A stretch of DNA of 64,000 bases from Ginglymostoma cirratum. Its lineage: Eukaryota. The translations under genes and the position numbers were made by a program. Location: contig JAHRHZ010000069.1 of the NCBI GenBank assembly GCA_024137785.1, positions 12,646,618-12,710,617 of the forward strand, read 5' to 3'. Positions 6,033 to 60,656 of this stretch are shown piece by piece. Each line of letters opens with the position of its first letter. The first letter of the stretch is position 1. The notes beneath the pieces are model-generated. The model saw only the letters and a program-made list of their open reading frames with translations. It did no database searches and had not been told where the DNA came from.

Positions 6033-6217
6033 AGATCACAAGAACTGCAGATGCTGGAGTCAGAGATAACACAGTGTGGAGATGGAGGAACACAGCAGGC
6101 CAGGCAGCATCACAGGATAAGGATGAAGAAGGTTCCCAACCCGAAACATCAACTTTCCTGCTCCTCTGATGCTGCCTGGTCTGCCGTGTTCCTCCAGCTC
6201 TACACTGTGTTATCTCA
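6033..6217. mobile_element. PLE-derived hairpin element with degenerate hammerhead motif (6123-6150)
   Basis: Inverted arms gataacacagtgtggagatggaggaacacagcaggccaggcagcatca / tgatgctgcctggtctgccgtgttcctccagctctacactgtgttatc; flanking direct repeat ggtccctcggttag (6019-6032) / ggtccccgggttag (6218-6231). Confidence 0.85.
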
Positions 6218-6440
6218 GGTCCCCGGGTTAGCTTCGTTGACTGGATGGCTGGTTTGATGATGCACAGTGATGCCGGCACTGAGTTTTTAATGCCTACACC
6301 TCCTGAGGTTGTTGTGAAGGCCCTTCCCTCTCATCCCTACTGTTTTGCCTGAGGTGTGGTGATGTCCAGATTAAACTCACCACCAGTCATTTCTGTCTTT
6401 GTAATGTGAGAGCAGCCCTCTGAGATTACAGCGATATTCA
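6218..6440 (+). mobile_element. Decayed tRNA-derived SINE, apparently interrupted at its head by the hairpin element
   Basis: tRNA-like head ttagcttcgttgactggatggctggtttgatgatgcacagtgatgcc followed by a body resembling other elasmobranch SINEs; recognised from memory only. Confidence 0.45.
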
Positions 6441-7579
6441 CTGACAATTAATGATGGCACCTCAGTAACTTGGAATTGCTGATGTCAGTCCCTATTCTAT
6501 GGCTACATTCATGCCTGGGTATCTTTGGGGAGGGAGTATGTGGTGTCCATCATTATTTTCATAGCTTTCAGGGACAGATGGGTACTGCAGGGGGTAAGAG
6601 TGCTTCATCTCCCCTTCCAACTCCAGTTTGAATTTGCCACCTTCCTCTTTCCCTATGTTCCACTCACCTTCGAGGGTTTGCATTGTCCTTCACGGCTTTG
6701 CGTGTACATTAATCAGTCAGAAAAGACAGGTGATTCACTGGCGCTGGTTAATAGATGAAACAGTATTTGGCAATGGGAGAAAAATACATTCGGTTGTATG
6801 TAAACCCAATTCTGTACAAAAAAAAAGTTGGAGCTGTCCATCAAAATGCACTCTTGAAAGTTATCCCATGATGAAAATGAAAGTTTGGGAAGTCAGTCAT
6901 GCAGCGCAAACCCTCTGCTGGTTTTATGTCAACAGGTAGCCTGAGCTACCTGGCACTTCTTTTACACTCCACATTTTCTTTCAGCCAGTTGCCTGAATGC
7001 TTGATCAGTCCTGATGTGTTTATGCACTTGTGACACACAAGCAGGCCTTCACAAGTACGAGCAACAGGAGAGAAATATCCCCCTCATCATCACTGACGTC
7101 CCATGACCCACCCATGCAACTATGCCCTCTGTCTTTCCTGCATGGCTGCTGATAGGCCTATGCCAACTTAGTGACTCCTCCGACCCACCACCCCTTCCAC
7201 CTTCACCTACCATGTCAAGCTCATTGAGTATCCACAAAACATAATGCATATTGAAAAGAGAGTTCTCTTCTTTAAAGTTCTATATTGCTCACCCTTGCTG
7301 ACAGATGGATACTTAACATATCTAGACACTTTTTGACATGCCTTGATACTTGTCAACATTATTAACACTTCTTAGGTCAGACCATTCCAAAAGGTTTGTT
7401 CACCTTATGGACACAATCTCCTCCACAGTTAAAAGTCCCGAAGGGAAGTTGACTCACTGAAATATTCCCTGACGACCATCCCCAAAATATCCTTCAACCA
7501 TATCTGCAGATATCATGTCTCCAGTGGAGCACCCTAACTCTCTAAAAGACATGTGCTCAGAACAAATCTACTCTTGACT

Positions 7580-7749
7580 GAAACAAAAACAGAAATTGCT
7601 GGAAAAGCTCAGCAATTCTGAGGAAGGGTCACTCAACCAGAAAGGTTAATTCTGATTTCTCTCCACAGAAGCCGCCAGATTTGCTGAGCTTTTCCAGCAA
7701 TTTTCGATTTTGTTTCTGATTTACAACATCTGCAGTTCGTTCGTTTTTT
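7580..7749 (+). mobile_element. PLE-derived hairpin element, second family; hammerhead-like motif 7618-7648
   Basis: Arms aaacaaaaacagaaattgctggaaaagctcagca / tgctgagcttttccagcaattttcgattttgtttc; motif ctgaggaagggtcactcaaccagaaaggtt; TSD atctactcttgact (7566-7579) / atctgcttttgact (7750-7763). Confidence 0.8.
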
Positions 7750-8705
7750 ATCTGCTTTTGACTAGTTTAACCTCCACACTCTGAATCCCAGGCACCAGGG
7801 ACGCCAAAATTCTATTGCAATGGAGACAGTTGCTCAGTTGAATGGCCACCTATTTTTAGGAATCGCACATGTGCAAACTACTGGAATGCCAACCTTACCT
7901 CTGTGAAAATGAGAAATGTCAGGTAAAAGGTCAGGACTGAGAATTCACAACATCTTCCAGCATTTGTCTTGAACAGGGATGTTGTCTCTGATTGGGGCCT
8001 GGATCTTTTATCTCGGGTGACCTTCCAAGATAGCGTGGGCCTATTTTAAAGAAGAATGTGGAAGTTCAACTGATGTATAAGCCAACATTTAGCCAAACAA
8101 ATTTCAATAAAAAATCTGAAACCTTGAGAAGAAGGTATACTATTGTGTTTCCATACATTAATCCAATGTCACTGAAAGTGGACTTGTCACTGTGAGCTGC
8201 TATCATAAATTGAGGACAGGAAGGAATCCACATACATCCAAGTCCTTTCATCGCAGATAATGCCACATTATTTTTCAGCTGGTAAAAGTTCATATCCTGT
8301 TACAGTTGGCAAGTTTCTGGCATTTGAGGAACAAATCATTGCAAGCATGATGTTGTTTTGTATCTGTCAGATCCATTCATTCTTTGAAAGCCATGGGGTG
8401 TCAGGGACATTTTATTTCAATTTCAGCTGAAAGGAAATAAATGTCTGATTCATTGACATTTCTGGGTTGGCTTGGTATATGTTTATAAACATTCAAGCCA
8501 TCTGTTACTTTGATGATGTTTTGATTCATGTATGCTTGAGGTCACCAATTTCCTTTGTTCTTTGGGATGATCCATCAAACTTCTGAGCCAGTTGGTTGGT
8601 TTGAAAGTGTAACACATCAAAGACCAAATGTTTGTACGTGTGTGGAAGTGCATTTCAATGCTTTAGTTTTTTTTTTTTGTTGGAGGAAATTGGAACTTTG
8701 CTCAT

Positions 8706-9110
8706 TAGAATTTCATAGAATAGGAGGCGATCTCTTTGAAACATAAAGGATTTTTAATGGGCCTGACAAGGTAAATGATGAGAAAATGTTTCCTCCCATG
8801 GGAGAGTCTACGGATCAGAGGGCTTAGCCTCAGAATTAAGGAGTGTCAATTTAAGACTGAGATGAGGAAGAATTTCTTCTTTGAGGCTTCAGAGTCTTTG
8901 GAACTCCTTAACACAGAGAGTTGTAAGGGCCGGGAGCTTGTGTATGTTTAAGGCAGAGATATATTCTTGATCAGTAGGGGAACCAAGCGTTATAGGGAAA
9001 GGGCAGGAACATGGACATGAGGAAAGATGGATCAGGCATGATCCTGTTGAATGGCAGAGTAGGCTTGACGGGCAGAATAGCCTTCTCCTGTTCCTATTTC
9101 TTATGGTCTT
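8706..9110 (+). mobile_element. CR1/HER1 LINE 3' fragment
   Basis: RT C-terminus (aggcgatctctttgaaacata, G-D-L-F-E-T) and CR1 3' UTR gaatagccttctcctgttcctatttcttatggtctt. Confidence 0.8.
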
Positions 9111-11320
9111 ATTCAATTTGATCTCCCCCATCATTTACAACCCTGTGCCATTTGTCTTAGGCCTTGTGGAGATTGGGAGTTCCTTGTTTGGAGGAGGTCA
9201 GGTTCCAAATTTTAACTGGGAAGCAAAATCGAATGTGTACCTGAACAAAACTCTTATCTGGTGGGGCAGCATTTTGGAAGCCCATCAAAAATGCTCGCTT
9301 GATTTCAGTCAGTGAAGAAAATGGAAGACCTGTTAAAGAGACTATAACATCCTGGAAGATATAAGTAAGATGTATTTTCAGACTTCCAAATGTCATTACT
9401 GGGTACCATATTGTGATGTGTAAGTGTTTTTAATGCCGTGATTATGATGGGGACCTGTTGTTTAAAAGTAGGTCTGTGTTTATATTGGTCAGCTTTATGA
9501 ACTGGTTCGTGTGCATTACAGTGCTTTCAAAATGGAGAAAGGACCAAAATGCAGAAAATGCTGTTAGAAAGCATCCTGTGAACTGATGTAATCATCATTT
9601 CTGATGTGATTTAAATGATTGTGGCTGCAACAAAGAAAATGGTTTTGACCTTTGGTGGTGAGCGGGGTTAAGAAATCGATACTTGAAAAGAAAGCCGAAC
9701 AACCTTCTATTTCACACTGATTGTCAGGTACTATGTTTGGAAATTAAACTAAACTCCTGCTTTTCCTTTTTTCCTCGAGATTAGTCTATTGTTTTGGCAC
9801 CTGTGGCTATATAAATGATTGGCTACCTTTCAGGCACTCATGGGTTTCAGCAAAGTAGGTGTTTGATTCTTCTGAGAATCAATGAAAATTTAAGAAGTTG
9901 CAAGAAACAGATTATTCTTTTGAAGTGGTTTCTGATTTGCTGATGTGCAAAGTATTGAAAACATTTTCTTGCCATATGACAAAAAGCATTTTTTTCTCAA
10001 TGAAAAATATGAATGCTTTTATTAGATGATGAAATATCCATTTTCCTCTGAAAGATTATCAAATATTTTCCGTTGATGATGCATGGAGATCTGCAGACTG
10101 TATGTGGTGCAAAACATGTGAGGAATGATACAGAGAGACTGAGGAGTGTCATAGATTATCCGAGTAGGATTGAGATGACAAAGTTGGCATTTCAGTTGTG
10201 TTGAGGATGTCAGTTGTGAGGCATGATATTTATGAGGCCTTTAAACACTGCTATAAATCGGGATAATGTGTTGAAGATTTGAGGTGGGTTTTCTGACTGA
10301 GCTGCCTCTGAACCCACACTCCTTACCCCCTTGTAGCTGCATTGGAAACTGAACCTTGTTGTCAAAGGGTGTGTGAAGGCAACCATGGGATGGACGTGCA
10401 TTTCGTGAACTGCAAGCATGTTTTCTCACATCCGAAGGAACATTCAGCCCCTGGTCTCTTGGTGATTAAGAAGCATGTTTATTCTCTTCCCTCTACTGAC
10501 ATTGTGCCACATCATAAATTTGTGTCCCAAATGGACCACACATGTTAAGTTAAGATACAGAGTGTCTTCTAAAGTGCAAAGAGCAGTCTGCTCAGTCTGC
10601 AAAAGCAGTCCTAAAAGATGTTCTCTTTGCCCCTCTCAACCATGAACAATTTTTCTTTTAAGGTATGAGTCATGCCATAAATGAGTATGACGAATGCATA
10701 CAAAACAACATGCTTTGGATACAGAAAATATGAATTAAGAATAACAAAGCTGGGAAAATTCAGCATATTGGGTAGCATGTGACAGAAGAACAGAAATAGT
10801 GGATGGAAGATTATGGTTGGAAGTGTGGAAAGTCCCCTGCCATAACCCTCCTCCACTCAAAAAAGTCTTTGGCCAGCTCACTGGCAGTTTAGAAGGGGCT
10901 GCACCTGGCGAGACAAGCTCCTAATGGAACCCACCCCTTGCTGGGAGGAAGACTCACTCAGTAGAGATGCCAGCCAAATGGATTTGCCGACAGCACCCAC
11001 AATCCTGGCAGTGCCTGAGCTCCATAGTGGGATCTGTCAGAATTGCAGTCAGAAGTGATGATCTGAAGTTGTTGACCTCAGTGCTGAGTGTAAAAGACAG
11101 AAGACTGCTGAGTCAAAAAATATAATGCTGCTCATTGAGCTTATGCTAAGCTTCACTGGAACTGTGTAGCAGGCCTCAGACAACATATTAGCAAACTGGA
11201 GAATGATAAGCTTGTGCATTGAATTAAGGTGATCAGCAAAGCAGCCATCCAGTCTGCTTTTGGTGCCCCCTCCCCCTGCCCCCAGTGGAGAGAATAACAC
11301 GTCATGAGCAGAAAGTACAG

Positions 11321-11658
11321 CATCATCATCATTGGTAGTCCCTCAGAGATGAGAATGTCGAGAATCCGTCGGTGGCTGTGTACAGACCAATGTGGCTGCC
11401 ATAGGCTCTGTTACACTTGGGCCGTGGGAAGGAATGGGTGGAGCGTTGGTGTGGCAGCGCACTCCTTTTGCTGTTTTCACCTTACTTCCGTTTTTACCCA
11501 ATAACGAGTCTCGAGGTGCTCAATGCCTTCCTGGATGCTCCTGGTGACTGTGGACGGTCTGGAGCCAGTGATTCCCAGGTGTCTGTGGGAATGCTTCACT
11601 TCACCAGTGAGGCCTTAAGGGTATCACTGAAGCGCTTCCTCTGTCCACCTGGGGCTCA
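11321..11658 (-). mobile_element. RTE-clade LINE 3' fragment
   Basis: Minus-strand translation APGGQRKRFSDTLKASLVK..IPTDTWESLAPDR, typical of the RTE ORF C-terminus; (gat)n tail at 11321-11332. Confidence 0.8.
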
Positions 11659-11866
11659 CCTAATAAGTTGAAAGATGCAGTGGTAAATCAGTGTTTCACT
11701 TGGAAAGGATATTTGGTGACTTGGACAAGGAGGGCTCCATCCTTCCCAATGTTCTCATCCTCTTTCCTTGGAAAACTGCTCCTGTTCCTCCAGTGCTCAA
11801 CATCTAACATATCACTTTGTTGCCCTGTTCCAATTGGGCCATGCAGAGCACAGTACACCAGTCAGA

Positions 11867-12731
11867 TGTGGCATACTCTACCCAGACAACACTGAAGGGA
11901 ACCCCCAGAAGAATTAGGACTGTTTTTACGCTTGAAGGAAAAACCCAGAGCTTAGAAAGCTTTTGTTTTTTAGTTGCTGAAGTTCTGGCTGACATTGGAT
12001 GGATCCGTTTCTCTTCAAGAATGGAGCTAGTTTAGAACGGTTAGGAAACACGTAAGGATTTTAGCTTGAAAGTTTAAGACCGGAAGTGGTTGGATAGAAT
12101 CCTGAAAGGGTTATTTGAAGCTGAGAAGGTCTAATCTTAGTCAATATAATGTGGAGCTAGAGGAACACAGCAGGTCAGGCAGCATCTGGGGAGCACGAAG
12201 GTTGATGTTTCGAGTTTACACCCTGCATCTTGACTTTCCTGCTCCTCTGATGCTGCCTGACCTGCTGTGTTCCTCCACCTGTATTGAATCTGACTCCAGC
12301 ATCTGCTGTTCTTGGTTAATCTTAGTTGTTTGACTAATTAAGGGAGAGGCTACCAACCTCTCAAGATTGTTGAACTGAAGAAACTATAAAGTTAAACCTA
12401 TGGATGGATAGAGAAGTAAACTCTTTCCTGTGTTTGAATACTGTAAAGTGACAATTTTGGAATAGTTGGGATTGTATGTTAACTGTTTGTTTCAAAATCT
12501 TTCAAATTGTCTTGTATGTAAATAATTTGGGTTATTTCAGTCCAACTCCTTTTGTTTTGCATAAAAAAAGCCTGTCTTATTGTTAAAACCAAATTTGCAA
12601 CATGTGTTTCAGTGGAAAACCACCTTGTTAAACCAACAAAAATAAAAAAAAGGCAAAAAAATGTGATTTATCAAGATAGACAGAAGACTGGAATCTGACT
12701 TGTCCTAATAACATTAGTTGGGATCAGAACA
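11867..12731 (+). mobile_element. Solo-LTR-like repeat, family A (start approximate)
   Basis: 3' end tctgacttgtcctaataacattagttgggatcagaaca is shared with 26325-26369; AATAAA-like signals; CA end; interrupted by the hairpin element at 12142-12313. Confidence 0.55.
12142..12313. mobile_element. PLE-derived hairpin element
   Basis: Arms ggaacacagcaggtcaggcagcatc / gatgctgcctgacctgctgtgttcc; antisense hammerhead remnant gatgtttcgagtttacaccctgcatc; TSD taatcttagt at 12132-12141 and 12317-12326. Confidence 0.85.
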
Positions 12732-15520: not shown

Positions 15521-15601
15521 GGCAAAGGACTGGTTCTTATTTTCACATCGACACCTTTTTTGTTTTAGGTAATTTTACTTAATGAAGAAAACACTATTTT
15601 T

Positions 15602-15648
15602 TAGAAATAGCAGGAACTGCAGATGCTGGAAAATCTGAGATAACCAGG
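15602..15648 (-). mobile_element. Start of a PLE-derived terminal repeat running into the assembly gap
   Basis: gaaatagcaggaactgcagatgctggaaaatctgagataacc matches the left arms at 6033, 17490 and 59697. Confidence 0.75.
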
Positions 15649-16048
15649 NNNNNNNNNNNNNNNNNNNNNNNNNNNNNNNNNNNNNNNNNNNNNNNNNNNN
15701 NNNNNNNNNNNNNNNNNNNNNNNNNNNNNNNNNNNNNNNNNNNNNNNNNNNNNNNNNNNNNNNNNNNNNNNNNNNNNNNNNNNNNNNNNNNNNNNNNNNN
15801 NNNNNNNNNNNNNNNNNNNNNNNNNNNNNNNNNNNNNNNNNNNNNNNNNNNNNNNNNNNNNNNNNNNNNNNNNNNNNNNNNNNNNNNNNNNNNNNNNNNN
15901 NNNNNNNNNNNNNNNNNNNNNNNNNNNNNNNNNNNNNNNNNNNNNNNNNNNNNNNNNNNNNNNNNNNNNNNNNNNNNNNNNNNNNNNNNNNNNNNNNNNN
16001 NNNNNNNNNNNNNNNNNNNNNNNNNNNNNNNNNNNNNNNNNNNNNNNN
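15649..16048. other. Assembly gap (400 N)
   Basis: Run of n characters. Confidence 1.
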
Positions 16049-17489: not shown

Positions 17490-17684
17490 GGAGATAGTAA
17501 GAACTGCCAATACTGGAGTCAGTGATAATACAGTGTGGAGCTGGATGAACACAGCAGGCCAGGCAGCATCAGAGGAGCAGGAAAGTTGATGTTTTGAGTT
17601 GGGATCCTTCTTCAGAAATCAGCTTTCCTGCTCCTCTGATGCTGCCTGGCCTGCTGTGCTCCTCCAGCTCCACACTGTGTTATC
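17490..17684. mobile_element. PLE-derived near-perfect hairpin element with antisense hammerhead motif in the loop
   Basis: ~65 bp inverted arms gataatacagtgtggagctggatgaacacagcaggccaggcagcatcagaggagcaggaaag / ctttcctgctcctctgatgctgcctggcctgctgtgctcctccagctccacactgtgttatc; TSD tccaacatcagcattg (17474-17489) / tccaacattaacattg (17685-17700). Confidence 0.9.
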
Positions 17685-20043
17685 TCCAACATTAACATTG
17701 TTGTTTTTGTGTTGAAAGGAACATTGAAGCAATGTGGTAGTCCCTCAAATGAGGAAGAACGTTGAGTATTTTAGCAGGGGAGGCTGTTGCACTGCACCTG
17801 CTGCAAATTTCTAGCTGACCATGAAAGTGTCCCATTCCTACAGCCTGCCATAAATATATCAGAAAGACTTACTGACTGACAAGTGACTTGTTTAGCCGTA
17901 TCATGCTACACCTTCCATGGCTGTCAAGTCCTGAGGTGTAATATCAACTCAGACTTTCTGACCAATAGGCTACCACTGTGTCACAAGTCCTCCCACTGAG
18001 GCAGTGATGCACTTGGTTTTGGGAAGGGTACAGTATACCTTCTTTTCTGATAATTGCCGTGGAATATCACATGGCGACTTTCTGATTCTATCAAGCTAAA
18101 TGGAGGATCAGATATTCATCATGTCAACTTGATATCATAATTTATTGGCTGAACCAGACATTTTGGAAAACATCATGGCTGAGGTATCTGCTGTTGTCCT
18201 GGATGCTCAGACCAGTTTTCAACAGTCGCTGCCTGTGCTGCTTCCTGCATATTCCAGTATGTTAAATTGCACACAACAGCAAAGAACGGAATCAACATCC
18301 CTATATTGTTCCAAGTTCTATCATTTAGAATATCTGTTCTGTTCAATAATTCTTTAGACAACAAAGAACATTTTATGCTGTTTAAATAAAGTTCCGCTGT
18401 GAGCTAACAAGAGCTTTCAAACATCACATTGATCATTGTTGTGATACTAAGTCTGGAACTCTGTGGAGTTGAAGTCAATTTCACAGAAGAAAGTCTGAAT
18501 TATTTGTTGTGAAAGTATGTTGATCCCATGATTTTGACACGAGTAATCCATGTGGCTCAGGAAGCCAAATATCATAGATTAGCTCTGTGTATTTCCAATC
18601 AACGTTAGCATTTTGTACCTCACATGTTAAAGCCCAGGGACCCGTAGCTTCTCACACACCTTTAATATAAGAAATTGCATTTCGTCCCATCTATCACAGG
18701 ATCATTCAAAGAACAGAGTCCATTATGCTGACCAGAAAAGAAAAGTACAAACAGCCAAGCTAAAAATATTATTTTCTATAGCAACCGAATGGGTTTTTCC
18801 AGGCATACCAATGCTTCTGTATCATTAAGATACAAATTCAAATCTCTTCAACCACTCCGTAATGTGCAAAAGATACATTTTAAAAGATGATAATTTATAT
18901 TGAAAAGATGTGGGTCAGCGTGCATATTGCAGAATAATTCTATATTTTCCTTTACATCTTACGATTGTTTCCCTTCTCCACAGTTCAGAGATGATAGTTT
19001 ACACTTGGAATAATGTTTAGCTATTATGGCCATTCTTCAGCTCTGGGATCTGATCTAGTAGTGGTGGATTATTTGACCCACAAGACCACTATTTTATCAG
19101 CCTCATTCAAATGGGATCATTGAATAGTGATGAGTCCTGAATGATATCTTTTCCCTCTCCCAGAGTACTTGAGCAGGTGTCAGAGGCACAAATTGTCTGA
19201 AGCATCAGTAAGATCATGGCCCAACTCCATCTATAAAGAGATAACTGTCTCTGAAAGGCATAGGAAGGATGACTTGCAAGCATGTGGTCATTCTCAAACC
19301 ATGATACTTATTTTTGCATCAGAAAAAATCTTGATTAAATATACGTTTATTTTCATGTTAGCTTAAAAATTAAGTTTGGGTGTTTTGCTCCATACTTCCA
19401 AGAAAACAGTTCCAAAAGCTGCCCAGACTTTTCTAAACCAATTTTTGAACCTTTATGGATGTTGAATTGGATAACACATGCAATAAATAACCATGAATGA
19501 ATTGCTCGACAAACCACACTGGAGACATAATGGGTGTGTTTCTTTCCTTTCCTTTCTCCAATTTGTTTTTCTGCACTAGTTCTTCACACAATCATAAAGA
19601 CTATTACCAGTAGAAAATTTATTTATGATTCAGAAAATTTTGCATAAGGAGAAAAACATATCAGAGAAGCAATGATGTGATACTTAGCTTACATATTACA
19701 TCAATTTGTCTCAAAATGAAAACAGCTTGATTTTTTTTCTAGTCTTTGATAACATCTGAAATGCAGATTGGAAGATAACATTAAGGCTTCTCTCTTTTGC
19801 TACTTCATATCGTATCGATAAAGTGGAAAATTTTGAGGGCATAACACATCTCATTTCACTTTTGTTAAGTGGATGTTTGATGATTGAACAAATTCACCAC
19901 ACTGTCAGCTAGTTAAGACATTTTCTGTCACTAATATTAAACAGATGAACTGTGATTAATAATCTTTTGCTTACCTCATGTTCCTTTTACTTTTGACGCT
20001 TTAACAGTTGAAATCACATTAAACTGAATTCCTGCATTGATGT

Positions 20044-20140
20044 CGATTTTCTGATGAAGGGTTTAGGCCCGAAACGTCAAGTTTTCCTGCTCCTATGATG
20101 CTGCTTGACCTGCTGTGTTCATCCAGCCCCATGCTTGTTA
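20044..20140 (+). mobile_element. 97-bp PLE-derived insertion consisting of a hammerhead motif plus tail
   Basis: Perfect 14-bp TSD tcctgcattgatgt at 20030-20043 and 20141-20154. Confidence 0.9.
20047..20082 (+). ncRNA. Minimal type I hammerhead ribozyme motif (PLE-associated)
   Basis: CUGAUGA (20051-20057), A, stem II GGGUUUAGGCCC, GAAAC, GUC cleavage triplet (20076-20078); short stem I UUU/AAG. Confidence 0.75.
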
Positions 20141-29035: not shown

Positions 29036-29673
29036 TGACACTGGAGGAGGCCCAGGATGGACATGTTGTCCAGGGAGTGAGAGGGGGAGTTGAAGTGGTC
29101 CACGAATGGGAGGTGTTGTCATTTGTCATGAACCAAGCGTAGGAGCTCTACAAAGCAGTCTCCGAGCCTCCACTTGGGCTCACCGATGTAGAGGAGGCTG
29201 CATCGGGAGACAACATCTCCCATTTGTGAACCACTTCAACTCCCCCTGCCACTCCCTGGACAATATGTCCATCCTGGGCCTCCTCCAGTGTCACAATGAT
29301 GCCACCCGGAAACTGGAGGAACAGCACCTCATATTCCACCTTGAAAGCCTACAATCCAATGGTCTCAATGTGGACTTTATTAGCTTCAAAATCCCCACGC
29401 CCTGGCCTCATCCCAAGACTAGCCCCCGTCTCATCCCCACCTCATTGATCTGTCCGCCTTCTCTCCCACCTATCTGCTCCACTATCTACCTGCTATCACT
29501 GCCCTCGCTCTCTATTTATTTCAGAGCCTCCTTCCCCTCCCCCATTTCTGAAGAAGGGTCCCGACCCGAAACGTCAGCTTTCCTGCTCCTCTGATGCTGC
29601 CTGGCCTGCTGTGTTCCTTCAGCTCCACACCATGTTATCTCAGACTCCAGGATCGGCAGTTCTTACTATCTCT
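29036..29673 (+). mobile_element. 5'-truncated Penelope-like element with inverted 5' segment, GIY-YIG endonuclease remnant and hammerhead motif
   Basis: 29036-29210 on the minus strand encodes SRCSLLYIGE (YIG motif). 29211 onward on the plus strand encodes QHLPFVNHFNSPCHSLDNMSILGLLQCHNDATRKLEEQHLIFHLESLQSNGLNVDF. C-rich UTR and terminal repeat follow. Confidence 0.9.
29545..29578 (+). ncRNA. Minimal hammerhead ribozyme motif in the PLE terminal repeat
   Basis: CUGAAGA (29548-29554), A, GGGUCCCGACCC stem II, GAAAC, GUC (29573-29575). Confidence 0.7.
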
Positions 29674-29679
29674 GAGTGA

Positions 29680-33262: not shown

Positions 33263-33399
33263 GAAACTGAAAAAACTGTGGATGCTGTAAATCAGGAACA
33301 AAAACAGAAGTTGCTGTAAAAGCTCAGCAGGTCTGGCAGCATCTGTCAGGAGAAGTCAGAGTTAATGTTTCAGATCTGGTGACCCTTCCTCAGAACTCC
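33263..33399 (-). mobile_element. PLE-derived short element (family 2), hammerhead plus tail
   Basis: Homologous to 7618-7749, 39913-40034 and 53079-53177. Confidence 0.85.
33358..33399 (-). ncRNA. Hammerhead ribozyme motif with a 6-bp stem I
   Basis: Minus strand GGAGUU-CUGAGGA-AGGGUCACCAGAUCU-GAAAC-AUU-AACUCU; GGAGUU pairs with AACUCU. Confidence 0.7.
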
Positions 33400-35870: not shown

Positions 35871-37409
35871 AATGACATCGTAGACACAGCACAAATCTTG
35901 CAACAGCTGTGAATATATGTTTATTTCTCCCCCACTGTACTTTTAAAAGCAATCACATTTATTCATGATAATAAACTGATCAAAAGTAAACATTTTTCAA
36001 GTGTCGAAAGTGATCTTAATGATTATGTAATAGTTATGAATACGGGACATTCATTTATCCATTCTGTGCCCCGTGTGCAATAATTTTGAAAATGCCACAT
36101 ATATTCTTTCTATGGCTTTCTTTGAATGTTGTATTAACCAGTGAACAGTTTGAACTATTGTGTCCAAAATGATCCTTTGATGCTTTTCTTCTTGAGATTG
36201 TCACTTCAACTGGCATTTTAATGGTCCATTTTAATATTTACATTTCTGTAGCTATTTCTCAAATGATCATTTCAAGAAGATAATGCAGAAGCTGTTAAGT
36301 TGCAAATACCTGTCCACTGAATAGATGTTATTACTTTTTCGTAATTATCCCATCTCCTGCCCCCAGAAAAAATAATAACATTGACCATTGTAGCCACTGA
36401 TTATTATCACTTTCAGTCATAGAGCTTCAAATTGATATGATATGTTCTTGTTTCAATCATTTACGATAAATTACTTCTCACGTTTAGCTCCAGAACTTTG
36501 TTAGAACCCCCATTTGCAACAATTCTTTCAGGAATTCTTGATTTTTGCTTTCAGTGATTATCCGTGACCACTGACAACTGAAAGGATAAATGTAAGTCCT
36601 TCATTATGGAAAGTAAAACATTTCAATGGTGTTTTTACTTATACTATCTCTTTGCAATGTTTTGTGAGTATGAGTGATTATTGTATTTTCAAATAAACAG
36701 TCTGTTGCTATCAAGGTCCAGAAAGCTTGCAAAGATGATGAGCCAGATGTTTGTTCTTTCTTGTTGCTGTTTCTGATGAAACGTGTGTAATGTGAAATTA
36801 TTGAAATAATTGATCTGCTTGATCCACAGAGCAAACAGAGGCATTATTCTTATTTTCTTTGTCAAAAAGGATGGCTGATTTCAATCATGCATTGTTGCAA
36901 TGGAGAATTGGTTGAATTCATGAACTGAAACTCGTTTGGTTCGGTTTGAACACAATGATTACGTCCTGCTATATTATCAATTCTGCAATCGTGCATTTTC
37001 TTCCAAAGGAGTGTTTGAGAAAAAGAAGTGGAAACAGGAATAGCAAAGAGAGACAGATGTGTCCTTTTTTAAGAAATCAAAATTATTTCAAGACACTTGA
37101 AGTTCCTTAGCTTCAGAAAATGAAAATTACCTGCAGTACAAGCTACAGTGATAAGTAGCATGACAGAACTAAATATTTGTTTCTAAGGGGGGAAACATTG
37201 GCATTGGGAAATTAAGGATAACATTTCAGACATGTCAGGAAACAGCTTGCAGTCACAGACCGTCAAACGTATTAAGATTTAAAAAAGAACTTCAGTATAA
37301 TTTTCCATGCTATTTCCATATATTTCTTCCTTTCATGGTCAAAAATCTATTGATTGCAATCTTGATTATATTGATCCACTGAGCATTCACGCCCTCGTAG
37401 AAAATTCCA

Positions 37410-37750
37410 GTGGTCAGCACTGCTGCCTCACAGCACCAGGGACCTGGGTTTGATTCCACCCTCAGGTGACTGTCTGTGTGGAGTTTGCACGTTCTCCCCG
37501 TGTCTGCATGGGTTTCCGTTGGCTGCTCCGGTTTCCTCCCATGCGCAAGATGTGCAAATTAGGTGGATTGGCCATGTTAAATTGCCCATAGTGTTCGGCA
37601 ATGTAGGTGGGTTAACAATGGGAAATGTGGTATTACAGGGATAGGGTGGGGGCATGGGTCTGAGTGGGATGCTCTTCAGAGAGTCAGTGTGGACCTATTA
37701 GGCTGAATAGCCTGTTTCCACACAGGAGGGACCCTATGGAATTTCTATGA
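37410..37750 (+). mobile_element. HE1-type SINE, nearly full length
   Basis: tRNA-like head gtggtcagcactgctgcctcacagcaccagggacctgggtttgattcc, V-core and CR1-like tail. Confidence 0.9.
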
Positions 37751-37759
37751 ACATGCACC

Positions 37760-38195: not shown

Positions 38196-38199
38196 AAAC

Positions 38200-39899: not shown

Positions 39900-40034
39900 G
39901 TGACCCTTCCTCGGTCACCAGACCCGAAACATTAACTCTGAACTTTGTTTTCACAGGTGCTGCCAGACATGCTGAGCTATTCCAGCTACTTCTGTTTTTG
40001 TTCCTGATTTACAGCATCCGCAGTTCTTTCGGTT
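39900..40034 (+). mobile_element. PLE-derived short element with a micro-inversion inside the hammerhead
   Basis: gtgacccttcctc (antisense of the ribozyme 5' half) joined to ggtcaccagacccgaaacattaactctg; perfect 15-bp TSD ttcactgttgatcat at 39885-39899 and 40035-40049. Confidence 0.9.
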
Positions 40035-41389
40035 TTCACTGTTGATCATACTGTGAAGTTTAAATGCACTGTGCCCACACGTTTATGGTAAATTCTAGTG
40101 TGGTTTCTTTTTAATCGTGCCAGGCTGATAGAAACTTTTCATCCCTGTTTACTTTTTCCTACTTTTTTTGGAACAGTGTGGTTACATTTGCTGCCTTCCA
40201 AACCATTTCAGTATTTAGAAGATCAAAACCAGTGTATCCTTTATCTCTGAGCCAACTTCTTTGATAGATTAGCATCTAGGCCATCAGATCGAGGGAATGG
40301 GTTAGGTTTTAACTCAAATGATTTCTCGAGGATGTTTCCTATATCAATATTAATTGTGCGTTCCTTACTCTCTTTGGATTCTATTTTCCCCACAATTTCC
40401 ACTTCTTTGTGACTACTGTTATAAAGGCAGATAAAGTGTAGCATTTAATGGAACTAATGGTGTTCTCATCCATGATCACAGAAAGTGTGGAGGAATACTG
40501 TCATTTATGTGCTGGAAGACTGGAAGAATCTCATAAAGGACCTTACTGGTCACTGTTCAGAATTCCCTGGAGAGGGGACACTGCGGGCAGCGGATGGAGC
40601 AGTGCAGCAACCTCTCACACTGACCTCCTATTGCGCAAAATAATCACCCGCAGGCGTGGAAATTGCATGTAATATGCTCACCAAAAGCCAGGATGAAAAT
40701 GGGGCACCAGCCGTGGGTGAATGAGGCTGGGGTGAGGTTTGCCAGAGAGGGATTACAGGGCATTTGAAGGTGAGAACAAAGGACTCTCTTTCATCAGAAG
40801 CCCCACCACCTTACTCAATAATTGTATCTGACAATGGTGAATGCTGGCAGGTTGCTGGCTATCATGACATTTTTGTCTGGTATTTTGTTCGAGACTTGGG
40901 AGAGCCATGTCACTCCAATTTAATCCCTGAGCCAATACAAAATAGCAGGGGGCTCAGAGATCATACATTAATTTAATTGGGAACAGATTTCTTTAACTGG
41001 ATATTTCATGTAGCTGATCCCACCCAGCTTTCCCAAGCAGCAGAACGTGCCCATTTCTGCTTGCTCAATTTTTTTTCTAAAATATCCATTTACAGCCTTT
41101 AACATTCCTTATCCCTTATCATAATTTATCTTATTGCTGCTTTAAGAGACCAGAACTTAGTTTTGCTGTACTCTTGCTTTTTACCTATTTGTGAAAGCTA
41201 ACAATTTTTTTAAACTTCTTTTTAAATTTACTCTGATTTTGTACTCTATCCAAAAACTGTTAAAGTACTCTCATTTTCTATCCTACCTTGCTTTCTCATT
41301 TTCTCAGCCATAATTCATTATCATTTCAAACATTTACAGTTCTTAACCTGGCAGCTCTTTTTGGCAATGCTATCAATCATGTTTCATTG

Positions 41390-44000: not shown

Positions 44001-44771
44001 AGTGAAAACAGTAAGAGACAAAAGGGTATGAAACACGATGTGAAATTTATCATCTGACATATTTCCAATTTTCTTCAGAGCAAGAATGAGACTTCATAAT
44101 TAAAATAGTTAAATTTTAATGTGAGATTATTGGATTGAGATTCATTATCACTGATCTGTAATGGCCAGAGTATTTATCCTTGTAATAACAAAACATAAGT
44201 ACCTGTGGTGCATTAAATTAAAATTTGGAACATTTCCAGAAAAAAGAGTTAGGAAGCTTTTAGAGTACAATTATGGCTTGAATTATATCATTTAAAGAGC
44301 TGTTCAATGTTTTCCAAAATGGTGGATGTGCCTGGAAATCACACATCCCACTTTCACTGAAGTGGGAATAGATCAGGTTGGCATTTGCACACGTATGGCT
44401 CTGGCAGGCGAGTATCAACTGAAATCATTAGATGCCTTGACTGAAACAGGATTTTGGCAGCCTTGACGTGTGAAACCTGAGGTGCACAGAGTAGATCTGG
44501 TAAGAGCAGGTCTGGACTTTGTGGACTTCTTTTGATTACCAGGGAACCCCTTTTGAAAGATGAGGTACACTTCGGGGCTTTGTTCTGTGACACCTTTGGG
44601 GAAGGTAAGATGCCCTGTGTTGGAGTAGATCTATCTCTGAAGTGAGGGTGCTTTGGAATATGTCAGGTGGTCTTTGAGAAACGCAAGTTGACTTTTGTAA
44701 TTGTGAAAGGTAGATTAAAAAAAAAACTGTTGAAACTATCCGAAGCCCCGCTTGAAGGAATCGGTCCAAAG

Positions 44772-45498
44772 TGTTGTGAGGTTGAGTAGAATACTTGTGG
44801 AACAGGAGGCAGGAAGTTAGAATTTGGTGTGTGTAAAAGGCTAAGGGTGAAAGTATTGCATGGTCCCTTGAAAAGATGATGTGTTTTTTCTGTGCGTGGA
44901 GATTTAAAGTGGATGTCTGTGAACAGCAGCTTGAAAGTTTGCAAGTACACAGAGAGCTAACTGCCATCAGCCAGAATTAACAGCCCTCACTCTCAAGAGA
45001 GAATTGTTTGCTCTCATAACTTGCTCTATGTATGAGAGAAAGCATCATCTAAGGAACAAAGGTACCCATGGCACAACTAATTAGTGTTTCTGACAGAAGA
45101 ATCAACAAAGAAGGCAGAAGAACATTCCAGAAGATTTAACCTGGCTATAATTTTGAGACACTAAATTCTTTTTCAAATATAAGTGGGACGCGTATTTAGT
45201 AGAACAGCATACCATTACACTCTTGCTTTCTTCGGGAATAGTTAGGAGTTAGATGAGATTTATTCAGTTTGTTAATAGTTTAGTTAATTTGTTCACTGTT
45301 AGAGTTAGATAAATAAATTGTTAGTCGTTGATTTTAAAGTCTGTGTCAGGGGTTTATTTTATTTAACCACTAGAAGTTGCTGAACAGCAGGTTACACCAC
45401 TTTTCACACTCCTTTTATAGATTATAGAGTGAGGTGGTCCTCTTTGGGTGTTTCGGTTTCAGTTCTCAGAGGGGGAGATCAACGCTCCCTTTATAACA
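44772..45498 (+). repeat. 5' LTR of the Gmr1-type element
   Basis: Colinear with 50204-50928. Confidence 0.9.
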
Positions 45499-50035: not shown

Positions 50036-50203
50036 GTTTAAAAGAAAAATTTTAATATAAGATAAAAACAATAGTTTTCAATGTTGTACAGATATAGAAT
50101 GAGAATAAAATGTGTAACTCTAGACTAATGAGCTTTGGATCAAAGAGAAAAAAAATGAAGCCATCTTTTCAAAATGATGGTTCATTTCTTTCTTAATGGG
50201 AGG

Positions 50204-50928
50204 TGTTGCAAATTTGGGTAGAGTACTTATGGATCAGGAGGCCAGAAGTTAGAATTTGGTGTTTGTAAAATTCTAAGGAGGAAAGCATTACATAGTCCTT
50301 TTAAAAGATGATGTGCTTTTCCCATGCTTAGAGGGTTAGAATGGATGTCTGTGAGCAGCAGCTTGAAAGTTTGCAAGTACACAGAGAGCTAACTGCCATC
50401 CGCCAGGTTTAACAGCCCTGAACTCTCAAGAGAGAGTCACTGGCTCTCAGAGCCTCCTCCATATATTAGAGAAAGCTAAATAACAAAGGTACCCATGACA
50501 CAACTAGTTGATGTTCCTCACAGAAGAATCAACAAAGAAGGCAGAAGAACATTCTGGAAGACACATAACCTGGCTGTAATTTTGAGAGACTAAATTCTAT
50601 TTTTGTTTATATAAGTGGGACTTCTATTTTTTCGAACAGCATACCATTAGTATCTTTCTTTATTAAGGAATAGTTAGGAGTTAGATGACATTTATTTGGT
50701 TTGTTAATACTTTAGGTAATTTGTTCAGTGTTAGAGTTAGATAAATAAATTGTTACTTGTTGATTTTAAATTCAGAGTCAGGAATTTATTTTACTTAACC
50801 ACTAGAAGTTGCTGAAAAGCAGGTTTACCACTTTTCACACTCCTTTTACAGATTATAGTGCAAGGCACTCCTCTCTGAGTGTTTCATTTTTACTTCTGAG
50901 ATGGGGGACCAACCTCCACTTTATAACA
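50204..50928 (+). repeat. 3' LTR of the Gmr1-type element
   Basis: Directly follows the PPT; colinear with the 5' LTR. Confidence 0.9.
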
Positions 50929-53078: not shown

Positions 53079-53177
53079 AAAATAAAAATTGCTGGAAAAG
53101 CTCGGCCGGTCTGGCAGCATCTGTGTAGAGAAATCAGTTTCATGTTTCAGGTAGAGTGACCCTTCCTCAGAACTGAG
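53079..53177 (-). mobile_element. PLE-derived short element (family 2)
   Basis: Antisense hammerhead motif atgtttcaggtagagtgacccttcctcagaactg; possible 8-bp TSD caggagca at 53071-53078 and 53178-53185. Confidence 0.8.
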
Positions 53178-53564
53178 CAGGAGCAGGACCAAACATTGAT
53201 GCCTGTGTTTTCACAAAGCTCGTTGCAGACATCTTGGGATACTTACATGCATCCAATTTGACATTCCTGTAACATTTATCCACAAAAACTGAATTATGCT
53301 ATGAGCCTTGCTGTTATTTCAACGCCAAGTGATGGCTCTGCGCCTTAGTGACAAGTATTCCCAGTTTAGTACAGCAGCAATTGTAAGTAGAGCAAGGTTT
53401 CACTTTCAGTACCTCAGTAATGTCCTCTACTTGTCTTGAAAGAAAAGGCTGTGCATCACCAGGCATCATGATGCCTGTTTCAGGTTGCCAATTAATGTCA
53501 AATTGGACCAGTTTTTTTTTGTGCTATATGCCTGAGCTCGTGGTAATTAGGGAGTGTTGTCACA

Positions 53565-53965
53565 GCTTGGCTCGGTTGATAACTCGCTCTCATTGAAATA
53601 ATCTGCTGTGCAGGAATGCAGCACCTTAGCTAGTCCTTTTATCCAGTGCAGAAAAACAGAAATGCTGGAGGTGTCATTTCAACGAGACATTTCAAACAAA
53701 GTACTGTTAATTCAGGTCTCTGTCAATAGTCCTGTGGCAGCATTCAAAGCAAAGTGGGTCATTTTTTTGGTATCCTGGCTGAATTTGTGCTCTCAACAAC
53801 ATCCATTGTTTATCTGTTCATTTTGCTCCAGGATGTTGCACTGCTCTAATTAGCTCCTGTATTGGACGACAGAACTGGACTGCAACTGCATTTCAAAGAA
53901 ACTCAATGTCTCAGAAACATTTCCAGACATTTCTGAGAGTTGTGATAATGGGCTACATTAATATG
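53565..53965 (+). mobile_element. Deu-domain SINE, decayed
   Basis: ttggctcggttgataactcgctc head; cctgtggcagcattcaaagc..tcctggctgaatttgtgctctcaacaacatc Deu-like core; L2-like tail. Confidence 0.55.
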
Positions 53966-56900: not shown

Positions 56901-57434
56901 AGGGAAAACTGTGTGTTCTAGGACCCCACATGACTATTTTGACTACAGAGTCGACAAGACTGGGCTGCACCTATTGGAAGATAAACTGAGGGCAATCAAA
57001 GGTGCCCTGACTCCTATATCTGTACCGGAGCTTAGGTCTTTCCTTGGATTGGTGAATTAAACCTGGCCTCCATCCTGGCACCCTTACATCTGCCATTGAA
57101 ATGGTCTTGTGGCCAAGACATAGCCTTTAGAGAAGTAAAGAAGCAATCATCGTCTAAGCGGTCTGGTGTGATGCCTCCCTATACAGTATTGGGGTAGTAT
57201 TAGCCCACAGGTGGCCCAATGGAGAGGTACACTCAATCGTGTATGCTTCCCAGACTTTGGCTGACACAGAGTGCCAATACACCCAGACAGGGGAGGAAGG
57301 TTTGGTGGTTATCTTTGGTGTGAGAAAGTTCCATCAATACCCTTATGGATGTAAATGGGGAGGGATGTCGCGATTGTAACAATATCAGTCAGGTGGATCT
57401 CATAGAATATGAGTTCCCTGATTGGGTCTGTTAA

Positions 57435-57590
57435 GGGGAGATGGTGGTGTACTGGTAATGACACTGGTGTCGTGATCAAGGACCTCAGGCTAATGTTCTG
57501 GGGTACCTGTCTTCAAACCCTGAATTCAGTAAATACCTGGAACAGAAAGCTATCCTAATGGTGAACGTGTAACAACAGTTGATAGTTTTA
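57435..57590 (+). mobile_element. tRNA-headed SINE-like fragment inserted in the 3' LTR
   Basis: ggggagatggtggtgtactggtaatgacactgg..ggctaatgttctgggg..ttcaaaccc; reverse-complement homolog at ~63420-63680. Confidence 0.65.
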
Positions 57591-57592
57591 CA

Positions 57593-57899
57593 GGCAGCAC
57601 TGTGGCTCAGTGGTTAGCACTGCTGCCTCACAGATCCAGGGACGCGGTTTCGATTCCAATCTCGAAAAACTGGCTGTGTGGAGTTTGCACGTTCTCCCCG
57701 TGTCTGCGTGGGTTACTTCCACAGTCCGAAGATGTGCAGGCTATGTGAATTGGTCATGCTAAATTGCCTGTGGTGTTCAGGGATGTATAGATTTGATGGG
57801 TTATAGGGATGGGTCTGGGTGGGATGCTCTGAGGATCAGTGTGGAGTGTTGGGCTGAAGAGCCTGTTTCCACGCTGTAGGGATTCTATGATGATGATGA
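57593..57899 (+). mobile_element. Full-length HE1-type SINE
   Basis: A-box gtggctcagtgg, B-box-like ggtttcgattcc, V-core and (gat)n tail. Confidence 0.9.
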
Positions 57900-58019
57900 A
57901 CCTGGTCCAATCAGGGAGCCCTGGCTGACAGATATAAGCAGGAGCATCAGACATCCTGTTCTCACTGAGAGCAAGCTCTGAGGGAGCTGGATCAGTGTCA
58001 AGGATTCTCCACGTGCTTT

Positions 58020-58660
58020 ACTGAGGTCACATCTCATTCTTGTAACTCTCGAGAACACAGGCCCTGTCTCCTCAATTGCTCCTCATTATACAATCCCACC
58101 ATCCCAGGATTCTGCCTGGGAACCATACGCTGCACACTCCCTTGGGTAAGATGGTAAAAACTGTAAATAGTACTCGAAGCACAGTCTCACCAATGGTCTG
58201 ACCAATTGAATTAACACATCTTTACTCCTGTAATAAAGATAAAATATGGCAGATGATGTAAATTTGAAACAAATACAGGGAACGCTGGAGAAATACACCA
58301 GGTCTGGCAGCATCAATGGAAAGAAATAGAGTTAATGTTTTGAGTCTGGTATGACTGTTCTACAGAACGACTTCATTTTTATTCCGATACTCAAATTCTC
58401 CTTCAATAAAGGCCACATATCATTTGCCTTCCTAATTGATTATTACAGCTGCATATTAGCTTTCAGTGACTTATGCACAAGGACACTCCCATTCCTTTGG
58501 ACATGAATACTTCCCAAACTCTCTCATTTTACAGATGTACTCTGCACTTCTTCCACCTACATGGATATCCTCACATTTATTCACATCACGTTCCATCAGC
58601 CTTGTTCATTCTGAAGTAAGTGAGTGTCATTTGAATAAAGGAAATTGTGAAGGCACGAGG
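58020..58660 (-). mobile_element. Decayed CR1 LINE fragment
   Basis: Minus-strand translation SKDVLIQLVRPLVRLCFEYYLQFLPSY; interrupted by a PLE-derived element. Confidence 0.7.
58241..58368 (-). mobile_element. PLE-derived short element, older variant
   Basis: caggtctggcagcatc..agagttaatgttttgagtctggtatgactgttctacagaac; the boundary again lies at the ribozyme 5' side. Confidence 0.65.
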
Positions 58661-58736
58661 CACTAATTGACAGTACATAGGTCTCTGCACCACTTCCAAT
58701 GCATTTACATCCTCCTGAAAGAAGATCAATATTTTA

Positions 58737-58935
58737 CAGGTATTTCTCCTATAATGCAATAGTTGCGTTCTTATGTGACCTCGCGATATAGAAAATTGCA
58801 TTATAGAGAAATTGCTTTAGAAAATTGTCATACTGTACAGTAGAAAGTTCACATTGTCCAAACAGCGTCCACTATTCATCAATTGCATGACAGCAATTTG
58901 CGTTAATGAAACACATGTTGAAGCAGAAATACCTG
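58737..58935. mobile_element. Tc1/mariner-pogo (Tigger-like) MITE
   Basis: TA|caggtatttctcct..agcagaaatacctg|TA terminal inverted repeats with TA duplication. Confidence 0.85.
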
Positions 58936-58939
58936 TATT

Positions 58940-59680
58940 TGTCCTGCAGCCCTGTTTAACTCAAGTACAACCTCCCTACTTTTGCGTTCAATTTTATTTC
59001 AAATCAACCATAACATTTTATTAACTTTCCTATTTACTTAATATACCTACACACTAACCTTTGGTGGTTCACACAGCAGAACATACAGCCCTCTGCATCT
59101 CAGAGCTCGACAGTCTCTTCCCGTTTGGATAGTATGCCTCTTTTCACGTTGCTGGTCAAATAGATACTTTCACATTTCCCCCATTATATCTTATTTATCA
59201 GATCTATTCCCACTTCATTAACCAATCTGTATCCCTTTACAACTCCTTATGTCCTCTTCAGAACTTGCCTTCCTGCCGATCTTTGTGCAATTAGTAAACA
59301 TAGCATCCATACCTTCCGTTCCTCCAACCATGTCATTTCTATAAATTGTAAAATGTTGAACTCCCAGCATTGATCCATGTAACACAGCACTCATTACATC
59401 TTTCTAACCAGCAAATTAGCCATCTCTACTTATTTTCTGTTTCCTGTTAGCTATCCCATCTCTTAGTTATGCGAACACACAATTGATGTCTATTTTCTGC
59501 ACTAACTTTTGGTGTGACAATGTAATGGTTAAACATGCTTGGACTTTGACAAAGGCATGTTGACCTTTCCAGATTGCCTTTAATTTATCTAAATGCTTGT
59601 CTTATATTGTATTTAACAATAACTTATAATGTTTTCCTTCAACATTTGATAAGCTAACTTGGCCTGTACTTTCTTACAAT
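58940..59680 (-). mobile_element. Decayed CR1 RT fragment
   Basis: ctttgtgcaattagtaaacat (MFTNCTK, cf. FADDTK) and ctcccagcattgatccatg (GSMLG). Confidence 0.55.
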
Positions 59681-59696
59681 AACATATTTGTTTCTA

Positions 59697-60284
59697 GAGA
59701 GAAAAGGTACTGCAGATGCTGGAGAATCCAAGATAACAAGGCGTGGGGCTGGATGAACACAGCAGGCCAAGCAGAATCATAGGAGCAGCAAATCATATTC
59801 AGCCTGGGAACCCTGCAGCCCAATGGCATCAATGTGGATTTCACAAGCTTCAAAATCTCCCCTCCCCCAACCGCATCCCAAAACCAGCCCAGCTCATCTC
59901 CACCTCCCTAACCTGTTTTTCCTCTCACCTATCCCCTCCTCCCACCTCAAGCCCCACCCCCATCTCCTATCGACTAACATCATCCCGCCTCCCCTTGACC
60001 TGTCCGTCCTCCCTGGACTGACCTATCTCCTCCCTACCCCCCCACCACCAACACTCACCTTAACTGGCTCCATCCCCACCTCTTCAACTTGTCTGCCTCC
60101 TCTCCACCTATCCTCTCCTCTATCCATCCTCTATCCGCCTCCCCTCTCTCCCTATTTATTTCAGAACCCTCTTCCCCTCCCCCATTTCTGATGAAGCATC
60201 TAGGCCCGAAACGTCAAGTTTTCCTGCTCCTATGATGCTGCTTGGCCTGCTGTGTTCATCCAGCCCCACACTTTGTTATCTCGG
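59697..60284 (+). mobile_element. Truncated Penelope-like element with inverted terminal arm and hammerhead motif (60188-60215)
   Basis: Inverted arm 59697-59789; ORF end IFSLGTLQPNGINVDFTSFK; C-rich UTR; ctgatgaagcatctaggcccgaaacgtc; TSD atttgtttcta (59686-59696) / atttatttcta (60285-60295). Confidence 0.9.
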
Positions 60285-60532
60285 ATTTATTTCTACTCTG
60301 TTTTCTATCCAGTTGTCAATCTGCAGCTCATGCCCAGATGTTAAACCTTCCAATAATACCTCTATGCCATTGTATCCTTAACATATGTCTCTTTGCATGT
60401 CTCCTTGATGCCTCTGACAACTCATTGTCACTGGCCTGTTGACAGTTTTAAAGAATTTGACAGTTCATGAGTTTATTCATGTTTTGCACACATTAATTCC
60501 AACTTTTAAAAGTGACAAAGAACAGCTCACAG

Positions 60533-60656
60533 GAGCAAATCACTGCAGAATCTGGAATCTGTACTGAAAACAATAAAAAATCATAGAAATCACAGCAGAT
60601 CAGGCATCCGTGGAGAGAGTGCAAACTAACGTAGTTGACTCTTCGTCAGGGCTGAC
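60533..60656 (-). mobile_element. PLE-derived short element, further variant with partly deleted hammerhead
   Basis: actgcagaatctggaatctg..cagcagatcaggcatccgtggagagag..ctaacgt..gactcttcgtcagggctg; CUGACGA on the minus strand. Confidence 0.6.

Follow-up and report, generated by a model that had tools for sequence, protein, structure and literature searches.

The 64,000-nucleotide stretch of the Ginglymostoma cirratum genome analysed here (GenBank assembly GCA_024137785.1, contig JAHRHZ010000069.1, forward-strand positions 12,646,618 to 12,710,617; hereafter the window) carries 13 loci that a preliminary description had tentatively taken for ribozyme-delimited units resembling short interspersed elements (SINEs), derived from Penelope retroelements and built around a hammerhead ribozyme. 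The terminal repeat of the elements bearing a GIY-YIG endonuclease was present at all 13 loci (weakly at 60533), and the three stem II sequences quoted for these copies were found in the window, together with at least two sequence variants, namely families A (with subfamilies) and B, plus older B-like copies. In two Neptune-type families of Penelope-like elements (PLEs), these short repeats form the 5' leader (+1 to +98/+131); each copy of this leader is termed an arm, and positions are counted from the A located 4 bases before CUGA.

Short and long copies in the window

The 13 loci are not uniformly mini-elements, as those at 29036 and 59697 are the two endonuclease remnants with inverted arms; the others comprise one copy running into an assembly gap, four head-to-head pairs and six single arms. 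They are listed below, where inner and outer end denote the two 3' end sites of the leader and pseudo-LTR the repeated terminus (pseudo-long terminal repeat).

6033..6218: family A head-to-head pair; left arm on the minus strand (+38 to outer end), right arm on the plus strand (+6 to inner end); no intact hammerhead, C3 missing; duplication 6019-6032/6218-6231, 14 bp, 2 mismatches.
7580..7749: family B pair; left arm on the minus strand (+62 to +101), right arm on the plus strand (about +1 to +136); GAAAG for GAAAC; duplication 7566-7579/7750-7763, 14 bp, 2 mismatches.
12142..12313: family A pair, its arms beginning near +21 and +35; without hammerhead; duplication 12132-12141/12317-12326, 10 bp, exact.
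15602..15648: minus strand; family A outer (tail) end, running into the 400-N assembly gap 15649-16048.
17491..17686: family A pair; left arm on the minus strand (+1 to outer end, G12 to A), right arm on the plus strand (+25 to inner end); duplication 17474-17489/17685-17700, 16 bp, 2 mismatches.
20044..20140: plus strand; young family A single arm, +1/+2 to inner end; intact minimal hammerhead 20047-20082; extra 5' bases; duplication 20030-20043/20141-20154, 14 bp, exact.
29036..29672: plus strand; remnant 1, comprising the 3' part of GIY-YIG, the pseudo-LTR and the leader as far as the outer end; inverted arm 29036-29208; no duplication found.
29513..29519: plus strand; TATA-like box at -31 of remnant 1, a putative promoter; likely RNA start +1 = 29544; predicted hammerhead cut 29575/29576.
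33263..33397: minus strand; family B single arm, exactly from +1 (33397), with G before it; intact core boxes and an AUU triplet; no duplication found.
39900..40036: plus strand; family B copy, +14 to outer end, preceded by a 13-nt inverted piece; without CUGANGA; duplication 39885-39899/40035-40049, 15 bp, exact.
53079..53176: minus strand; family B single arm, about -1 to inner end; AUG triplet, predicted non-cleavable; duplication 53071-53078/53178-53185, 8 bp, exact.
58241..58368: minus strand; older B-like single arm, from +2; core broken.
59697..60285: remnant 2; inverted arm on the minus strand, 59697-59792 (+37 to outer end); plus-strand arm with endonuclease end, pseudo-LTR, TATA-like box 60153-60159, +1 = 60184 and inner end; duplication 59686-59696/60285-60295, 11 bp, 1 mismatch.
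60533..60660: minus strand; diverged, partly deleted copy; GAAA box absent; weak score.

The head-to-head pairs at 6033, 7580, 12142 and 17490, each lying within one target duplication, had been overlooked earlier. Relative to a control in which a score of 10 was reached by 1 of 149 random pairs, target duplications were well above chance at 12142, 17490, 20044 and 39900 and weaker at 6033, 7580, 53079 and 59697; the search found none at 29036, 33263 and 58241 and only a chance-level 7-bp match at 60533, and locus 15602, which hits a 400-N gap, cannot be judged. Such gaps (window 15649-16048 and loci L255-L314) stand at the centre of many young head-to-head pairs; perfect hairpin pairs are therefore under-assembled and under-counted. 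The inverted arm of remnant 1 (window 29036-29293) begins within the endonuclease region rather than the tail and has an 85-base overlap with the direct arm, and a further family A copy of 1.8 kb, extending into the reverse transcriptase (RT), lies 4-6 kb before the window (stretch L061:4219-6010).

A census was taken over 745,180 non-N bases from 13 stretches on 10 contigs, a sample that includes the window and is not strictly random (~251 kb were N among the first 604 kb of sampled sequence). It contained 217 arms, corresponding to ~0.3 arms per kb or ~1 insertion per 4 kb, so that the density is general and not particular to the window; the arm counts below use an alignment score of at least 60 (201 of the 217 arms). 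Scaled to the assembly size of 4.36 Gb, the number of arms would be, as a rough figure, about a million.

The parents are two families of Penelope-like elements

Judged from translations, the long family A copies code in one frame for RT, a Cys-rich linker and a GIY-YIG domain. For family B, 7 of the 30 best loci continue upstream as long copies, and among three translated copies two reach the linker and endonuclease (EN) and the third reaches the endonuclease. In both families a GLLYIG endonuclease motif follows the RT motifs, and a C-x4-C-x2-C linker lies between RT and EN. The translations thus suggest that the parents are endonuclease-bearing (EN+) PLEs of Neptune type, which we take to be a better fit than Nematis. 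A search of Pfam with two broken protein pieces returned no family, and one of PDB with the broken pieces gave no significant match. A zinc-finger-like linker between RT and EN is the layout described for Neptune and Nematis in the available text of PMC8557442.

Two partial tandems reveal the order of parts: pseudo-LTR, hammerhead (+1 to +36), tail (to about +133) and then the open reading frame (ORF), in which the earliest in-frame ATG beyond the tail stands near +168. Because of this leader-ORF order, the short unit is the element's 5' leader and also the 3' terminus of inserted copies. An upstream ATG near +52 lies in frame with the main ORF, with a TGA at the outer tail end (L220:469-550, L222:477-560), and this frame is shifted in another subfamily. 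The copies display the features of EN+ PLE insertions, that is, pseudo-LTR, partial tandem, inverted 5'-truncated copy, a one-end tail of 30-40 nt and target duplication, an architecture that is established as far as the accessible portions of PMC3846280, PMC8557442 and PMC2377424 describe it. A 215-aa frame of a different RT type with the motif IRYVDDTF was seen in the upstream flank of a match (stretch L034). This frame presumably belongs to a Poseidon-type element.

Arms mostly start and stop at fixed sites

The census bore out the proposal that a 100-200 bp unit is a dominant product, and the 5' ends were not uniform along the PLE. Among arms reaching the zone from -4 to +8, 52 of 91 in family A and 39 of 51 in family B stopped within it (stop rate per base 0.065 and 0.11, respectively), compared with rates of 0.0014-0.013 for +9 to +70 and 0-0.003 upstream; in each family, the other stretches measured reached at most a fifth of this rate. 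No peak was found at the ribozyme cut (+33/+35), arms stopping within +31 to +40 numbering 7 of 120 (A) and 2 of 67 (B). Delimitation by the ribozyme is thus not supported, since the 5' ends of the unit are found ~30 nt upstream of where the cut is predicted, and a peak at the cut is absent. The A at +1 was often replaced by T in short copies (25 of 34 non-A cases in family A, 9 of 13 in B), which could reflect non-templated A addition, a misread modified first base or T-rich microhomology.

The 3' ends were bimodal, with two sites ~33 nt apart, near +98/+131 in family A and +101/+137 in family B, and 24 of 31 short pairs combined one inner with one outer end. These sites match the two internal RT start sites that flank the tail of an anole element, in which both target strands are extended, the product length is fixed by the template 5' end and the main substrate is uncut RNA (PMC11167929). 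Contig depth from two other runs displayed this step as well, the leader being ~2-4 times deeper than the pseudo-LTR next to it and hundreds of times deeper than the 5' part of the ORF.

A TATA-like box and an extra G mark the 5' boundary

Of the 37 long A arms, 24 carried a TATA-like motif at -31; among the 11 long B arms, 6 had it at -31, with TATAAA starting at -29, and in the one older copy it lay at -32. The spacing is kept though A and B share little upstream, and the surroundings are pyrimidine-rich and family-specific; the box occurs solely in long copies, the short ones having none upstream. Its position suggests that +1 may be an RNA polymerase II start ~30 nt below the box.

The base preceding +1 points in the same direction. 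The template base at -1 was C in 84 of 94 long A copies. In exact-match counts across the genome, made for the young A subfamily alone, G preceded +1 in 2,392 matches versus A/T in 2,022 (54% against 27% expected from base make-up), while at -2, before the -1 C, the counts were 1,236 for G and 2,004 for A/T; the G:A ratio at -1 was about 1.6, with the A share estimated from the first 100 A/T matches. The first 40 G loci (41 matches) contained no long copy, the opposite arm's -1 base accounted for 2 of the 41, and one locus consisted of duplication, exactly one G and leader. The first 20 A/T loci (23 matches) included 9 at pair centres, with the A supplied by the other arm, and 2 more long copies. 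Furthermore, a short repeat of the leader's first bases stood just upstream in 9 of the 41 G matches as against none of the 23 A/T matches; two of the nine were exact G+1..6 repeats, and re-pairing of the cDNA end with the template (G7-A8) would produce such stutters at G matches. An extra G at the 5' junction is described as the mark of a copied cap in full-length L1 insertions in the available part of PMC11702581, and by analogy the non-template G at -1 may be a copied cap.

ORF-to-leader junctions use the same boundary

Among 30 loci chosen via the 5' part of the ORF, 16 carried an ORF ending at +336 to +1750 joined directly to a leader. The leader restarted at -6 to +7 in 15 of the 16 junctions and at +35 in one; all 16 differed, several had an added G, and the resulting units hold two hammerheads 340-780 nt apart. 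At least five such loci, inverted arm included, lay inside one target duplication of 13-14 bp. The ORF-bearing segment itself started at -2 to +19 in 12 of the 30 loci (one beside a gap), in the leader or just beyond (+45 to +109) in 12, and extended into the pseudo-LTR in 6.

About 50 polyA RNA reads join +412 back to -1 with one G added ('goes back 413'; L222:426-837, run X22). The exact joint was not found in the assembly, the library is unsuited to circular RNA, and the reads could stem from a genomic copy of another individual. In neighbouring stretches of one contig (L085:5687 to L087:8167), an inverted duplication of 11.1 kb with 99.9% identity extends from a long family A pair as far as the tail of a short copy and terminates in the pair's own ~15-bp target duplication; it may result from a template switch between homologous leaders in replication, from a read-through transcript or from assembly.

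The hammerhead is retained in layout and mostly broken in the window

The minimal type I layout (CUGANGA, extra base, stem II, GAAA, palindromic stem III, NUH) was found in the sample, and of the 176 cores with both boxes 172 had the extra A and 125 a GUC or GUU triplet. Within the window, the statement that nearly all copies retain the core proved wrong, because both boxes were present at 6 of the 13 loci and the full CUGANGA-A-stem II-GAAAC-NUH pattern at 4 (20044, 29036, 33263 and 59697), or 2 of the 10 complete short copies; breaks include GAAAG at 7580 and AUG as cleavage triplet at 53079. Stem II showed U-A/U-G wobble exchange and was near-invariant, its pairs being conserved between the families, with covariation not above shuffles (P = 0.18 and 0.70; 142 of 500 shuffles), and any constraint on it is explained by active parents. 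One stem I pair exceeded shuffles (37 versus 28 of 176), which reflects the A/B split. Single-strand folding gave no fold more stable than shuffles in six cases (z -1.5 to +1.4), and Rfam returned 19 matches at E ≤ 1, all below the gathering score and none to a hammerhead family; these matches, mostly microRNA models on hairpin pairs, were dismissed as chance. Cleavage of dimers is reportedly known from the work of Lünse et al.

No separate lineage of short copies was found

Trees of 82 A arms and 42 B arms, built on the region common to short and long copies, contained no short-only subfamily, although young small ones could be missed because only ~95 columns were available. Label changes between short and long numbered 22 in family A versus 25.7 after shuffling (37 of 500 shuffles were as low) and 9 versus 10.0 in family B; the nearest neighbour was long for 30 of 47 short A arms, and one identical-sequence set comprised 3 short and 3 long copies. 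No diagnostic mutation of short copies held up: G16.2-to-A appeared at first in 16 of 47 short versus 1 of 35 long arms and was not replicated (11 of 58 short, 21 of 98 long). Being without the putative upstream promoter, short copies are predicted not to spread further. With short and long copies intermixed on the trees, the TATA-like box absent and the core mostly lost or broken, the suggestion that the unit is mobilised in its own right is not supported.

Probable run-off reverse transcription from a capped start

We consider it likely that the short copies are dead-end, run-off ('strong-stop'-like) cDNA made from a capped RNA start, and not a ribozyme-delimited SINE. The element RNA would start at +1 and be capped, its source being either the full mRNA or short transcripts from the promoter of truncated long copies. 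The enzyme would nick both target strands, each priming cDNA at one of the two tail sites; reverse transcription would begin in the 5' leader, proceed toward the RNA 5' end for 98-135 bases and fall off at the cap. One arm followed by repair would yield a single copy, and the joining of two cDNA ends a hairpin-shaped head-to-head pair. An occasional jump of the enzyme from +1 to another point of the RNA would give a direct partial repeat, and long copies would arise from read-through RNA with a downstream leader or from a seamless jump. The templates would be mostly uncut because an intact hammerhead was copied.

A possible extension, which we regard as doubtful, is that PLEs replicate by a retrovirus-like strong-stop and strand-transfer cycle, in which target-primed synthesis from the 5' leader to the cap would be followed by a seamless jump to the RNA 3' end, guided by a 32-34 nt redundancy from hammerhead cleavage in the downstream leader; the roughly one million short arms would then be failed first steps and the 5' stutters telomerase-like realignments at the cap. 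If true, such a cycle would form pseudo-LTRs and partial tandems anew and assign a function to the ribozyme.

Several observations weigh against the run-off reading. The boundary is a zone of ~12 nt rather than a single base, many copies starting at +2 to +8, and 39 of 91 A arms continue seamlessly past +1. At +5, taken as a control, G and A each made up 50 of the first 100 of 582 matches, so that the G excess is partly non-specific and modest over control; the cap-G signal in the small sample was weak (11 of 25 in A, P = 0.054; 3 of 10 in B), and about a fifth of the G matches are stutter repeats, in which the G is readable as base +7. Direct jumps were rare in an unbiased sample (1 of 53). 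The Drosophila virilis Penelope promoter is internal and TATA-less (PMC2377424, available text), and the TATA reading is therefore not general for the class. The RNA start was not seen: polyA reads on the two partial-tandem copies, unstranded and dominated by dispersed copies, had no discrete starts or ends, and no intron-type joint was present among those shown. Finally, +1 is also the 5' edge of stem I, namely the first base of the family B stem (AGUU/AACU).

This last point favours the strongest rival, itself improbable, in which the template is a longer read-through RNA and RNA or cDNA structure sets the boundary, through drop-off or cDNA-end annealing where the hammerhead fold begins on its 5' side. 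In its favour, an elevated stop rate is seen from +9 to +40 and many pair junctions overlap in stem II or the T run; however, partnerless single arms stop at +1 too, stem I of family A has only 2-4 bp, none of the six folds beats shuffles, and the non-template G and the conserved TATA spacing are left unexplained.

Less probable still is a self-propagating SINE- or retrozyme-like element, excised by its ribozyme and mobilised by the Penelope-like enzyme. Very high copy number, the leader depth excess in two contig sets, a discrete size, the two hammerheads within the jump units and the reported derivation of retrozymes from PLE ends (10.64898/2026.07.22.740005, available part) speak for it. 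The lineage of its own that a SINE should have was not found among short copies, which show neither a short-only clade nor a diagnostic base, and as to the cleavage-defined unit ends expected of a retrozyme, arm ends show no peak at the cut site and 1 of 16 jump junctions falls near it; the junctions are all different. Head-to-tail arrays, the retrozyme hallmark, were not seen in the window, where pairs are head-to-head; direct two-hammerhead units are rare and each unique, and the core is mostly broken. The SINE/retrozyme reading is thus largely refuted. Least probable of all is ordinary random 5' truncation with nothing special about +1: inverted pseudo-LTR, tail and heavy 5' truncation are standard for the class (PMC8557442 and PMC3846280, available text) and long copies do truncate at scattered points, but the concentration of stops at -4 to +8 in both families, and the sharing of the +1 site by ORF-containing copies and jump junctions, contradict it.

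Other repeats in the window

A different dispersed repeat family occupies window positions 368-809, 37408-37740 and 57608-57891, and may resemble the elasmobranch HE1 SINE or CR1 tails. A repeat of ~700 bp is present in two copies, 83% alike and 5.4 kb apart (44771-45475 and 50203-50906).

Relation to known systems

These families share with EN+ PLEs of the Neptune clade the order RT/Cys-rich linker/GIY-YIG, a pseudo-LTR containing a minimal type I hammerhead, a tail confined to one arm, duplications of 8-16 bp and partial tandems. They differ in that the EN+ PLE papers, in their available portions, describe 5' truncation without a fixed boundary, whereas here more than half of the arms that extend to the first bases of the leader end at that point, and a TATA-like box at -30 and an excess of G at -1 accompany the boundary. 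In the anole Poseidon element the hammerhead and RT start sites overlap the ORF (PMC11167929), while here both lie upstream of the likely start codon. Dispersed single minimal hammerheads have been noted before and described as probable relatives of truncated PLEs (PMC4209133, in part).

Animal non-LTR retrozymes are likewise short and non-coding, with a type I hammerhead and kinship to the PLE pseudo-LTR, according to the available text of PMC7229834 and 10.64898/2026.07.22.740005, the latter reporting retrozymes in one chondrichthyan. As described there, retrozymes are head-to-tail tandems, cut to cut, that give circular RNA; the copies here are dispersed single arms and head-to-head pairs, running from the likely RNA start to the RT start sites.

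L1 insertions, full-length and twin-primed, are similar in the cap-derived extra 5' G and in cDNAs primed on two strands that produce an inversion within a normal duplication, and differ, so far as the accessible part of PMC11702581 goes, in priming at the polyA tail, with a second cDNA that starts internally beside the end of the first; here two fixed sites ~33 nt apart in the same leader are used. A literature search found no run-off reading for PLEs, no account of a cap G, a strong-stop product or a 5' boundary that is fixed, and no text dealing in particular with short PLE copies in sharks; its scope did not extend to Repbase, Dfam, subscription journals or the preprint's supplementary tables, which possibly list shark families.

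In retroviral minus-strand strong-stop synthesis, priming near the RNA 5' end yields a short run-off cDNA that can be moved to another point of the template. The products described here would be alike in being short run-off cDNA that can change template point; the primer, by contrast, would be nicked target DNA and no tRNA, so that abortive products would be fixed in the genome, and any homology-guided transfer is conjectural.

Such copies should not be annotated as SINEs or as active ribozymes. Taken together, the short copies are a useful record of Penelope reverse transcription, in which the genome preserves, at single-base resolution, the sites where the enzyme starts, the likely beginning of the RNA, the use of uncut templates and the jumps between template points.

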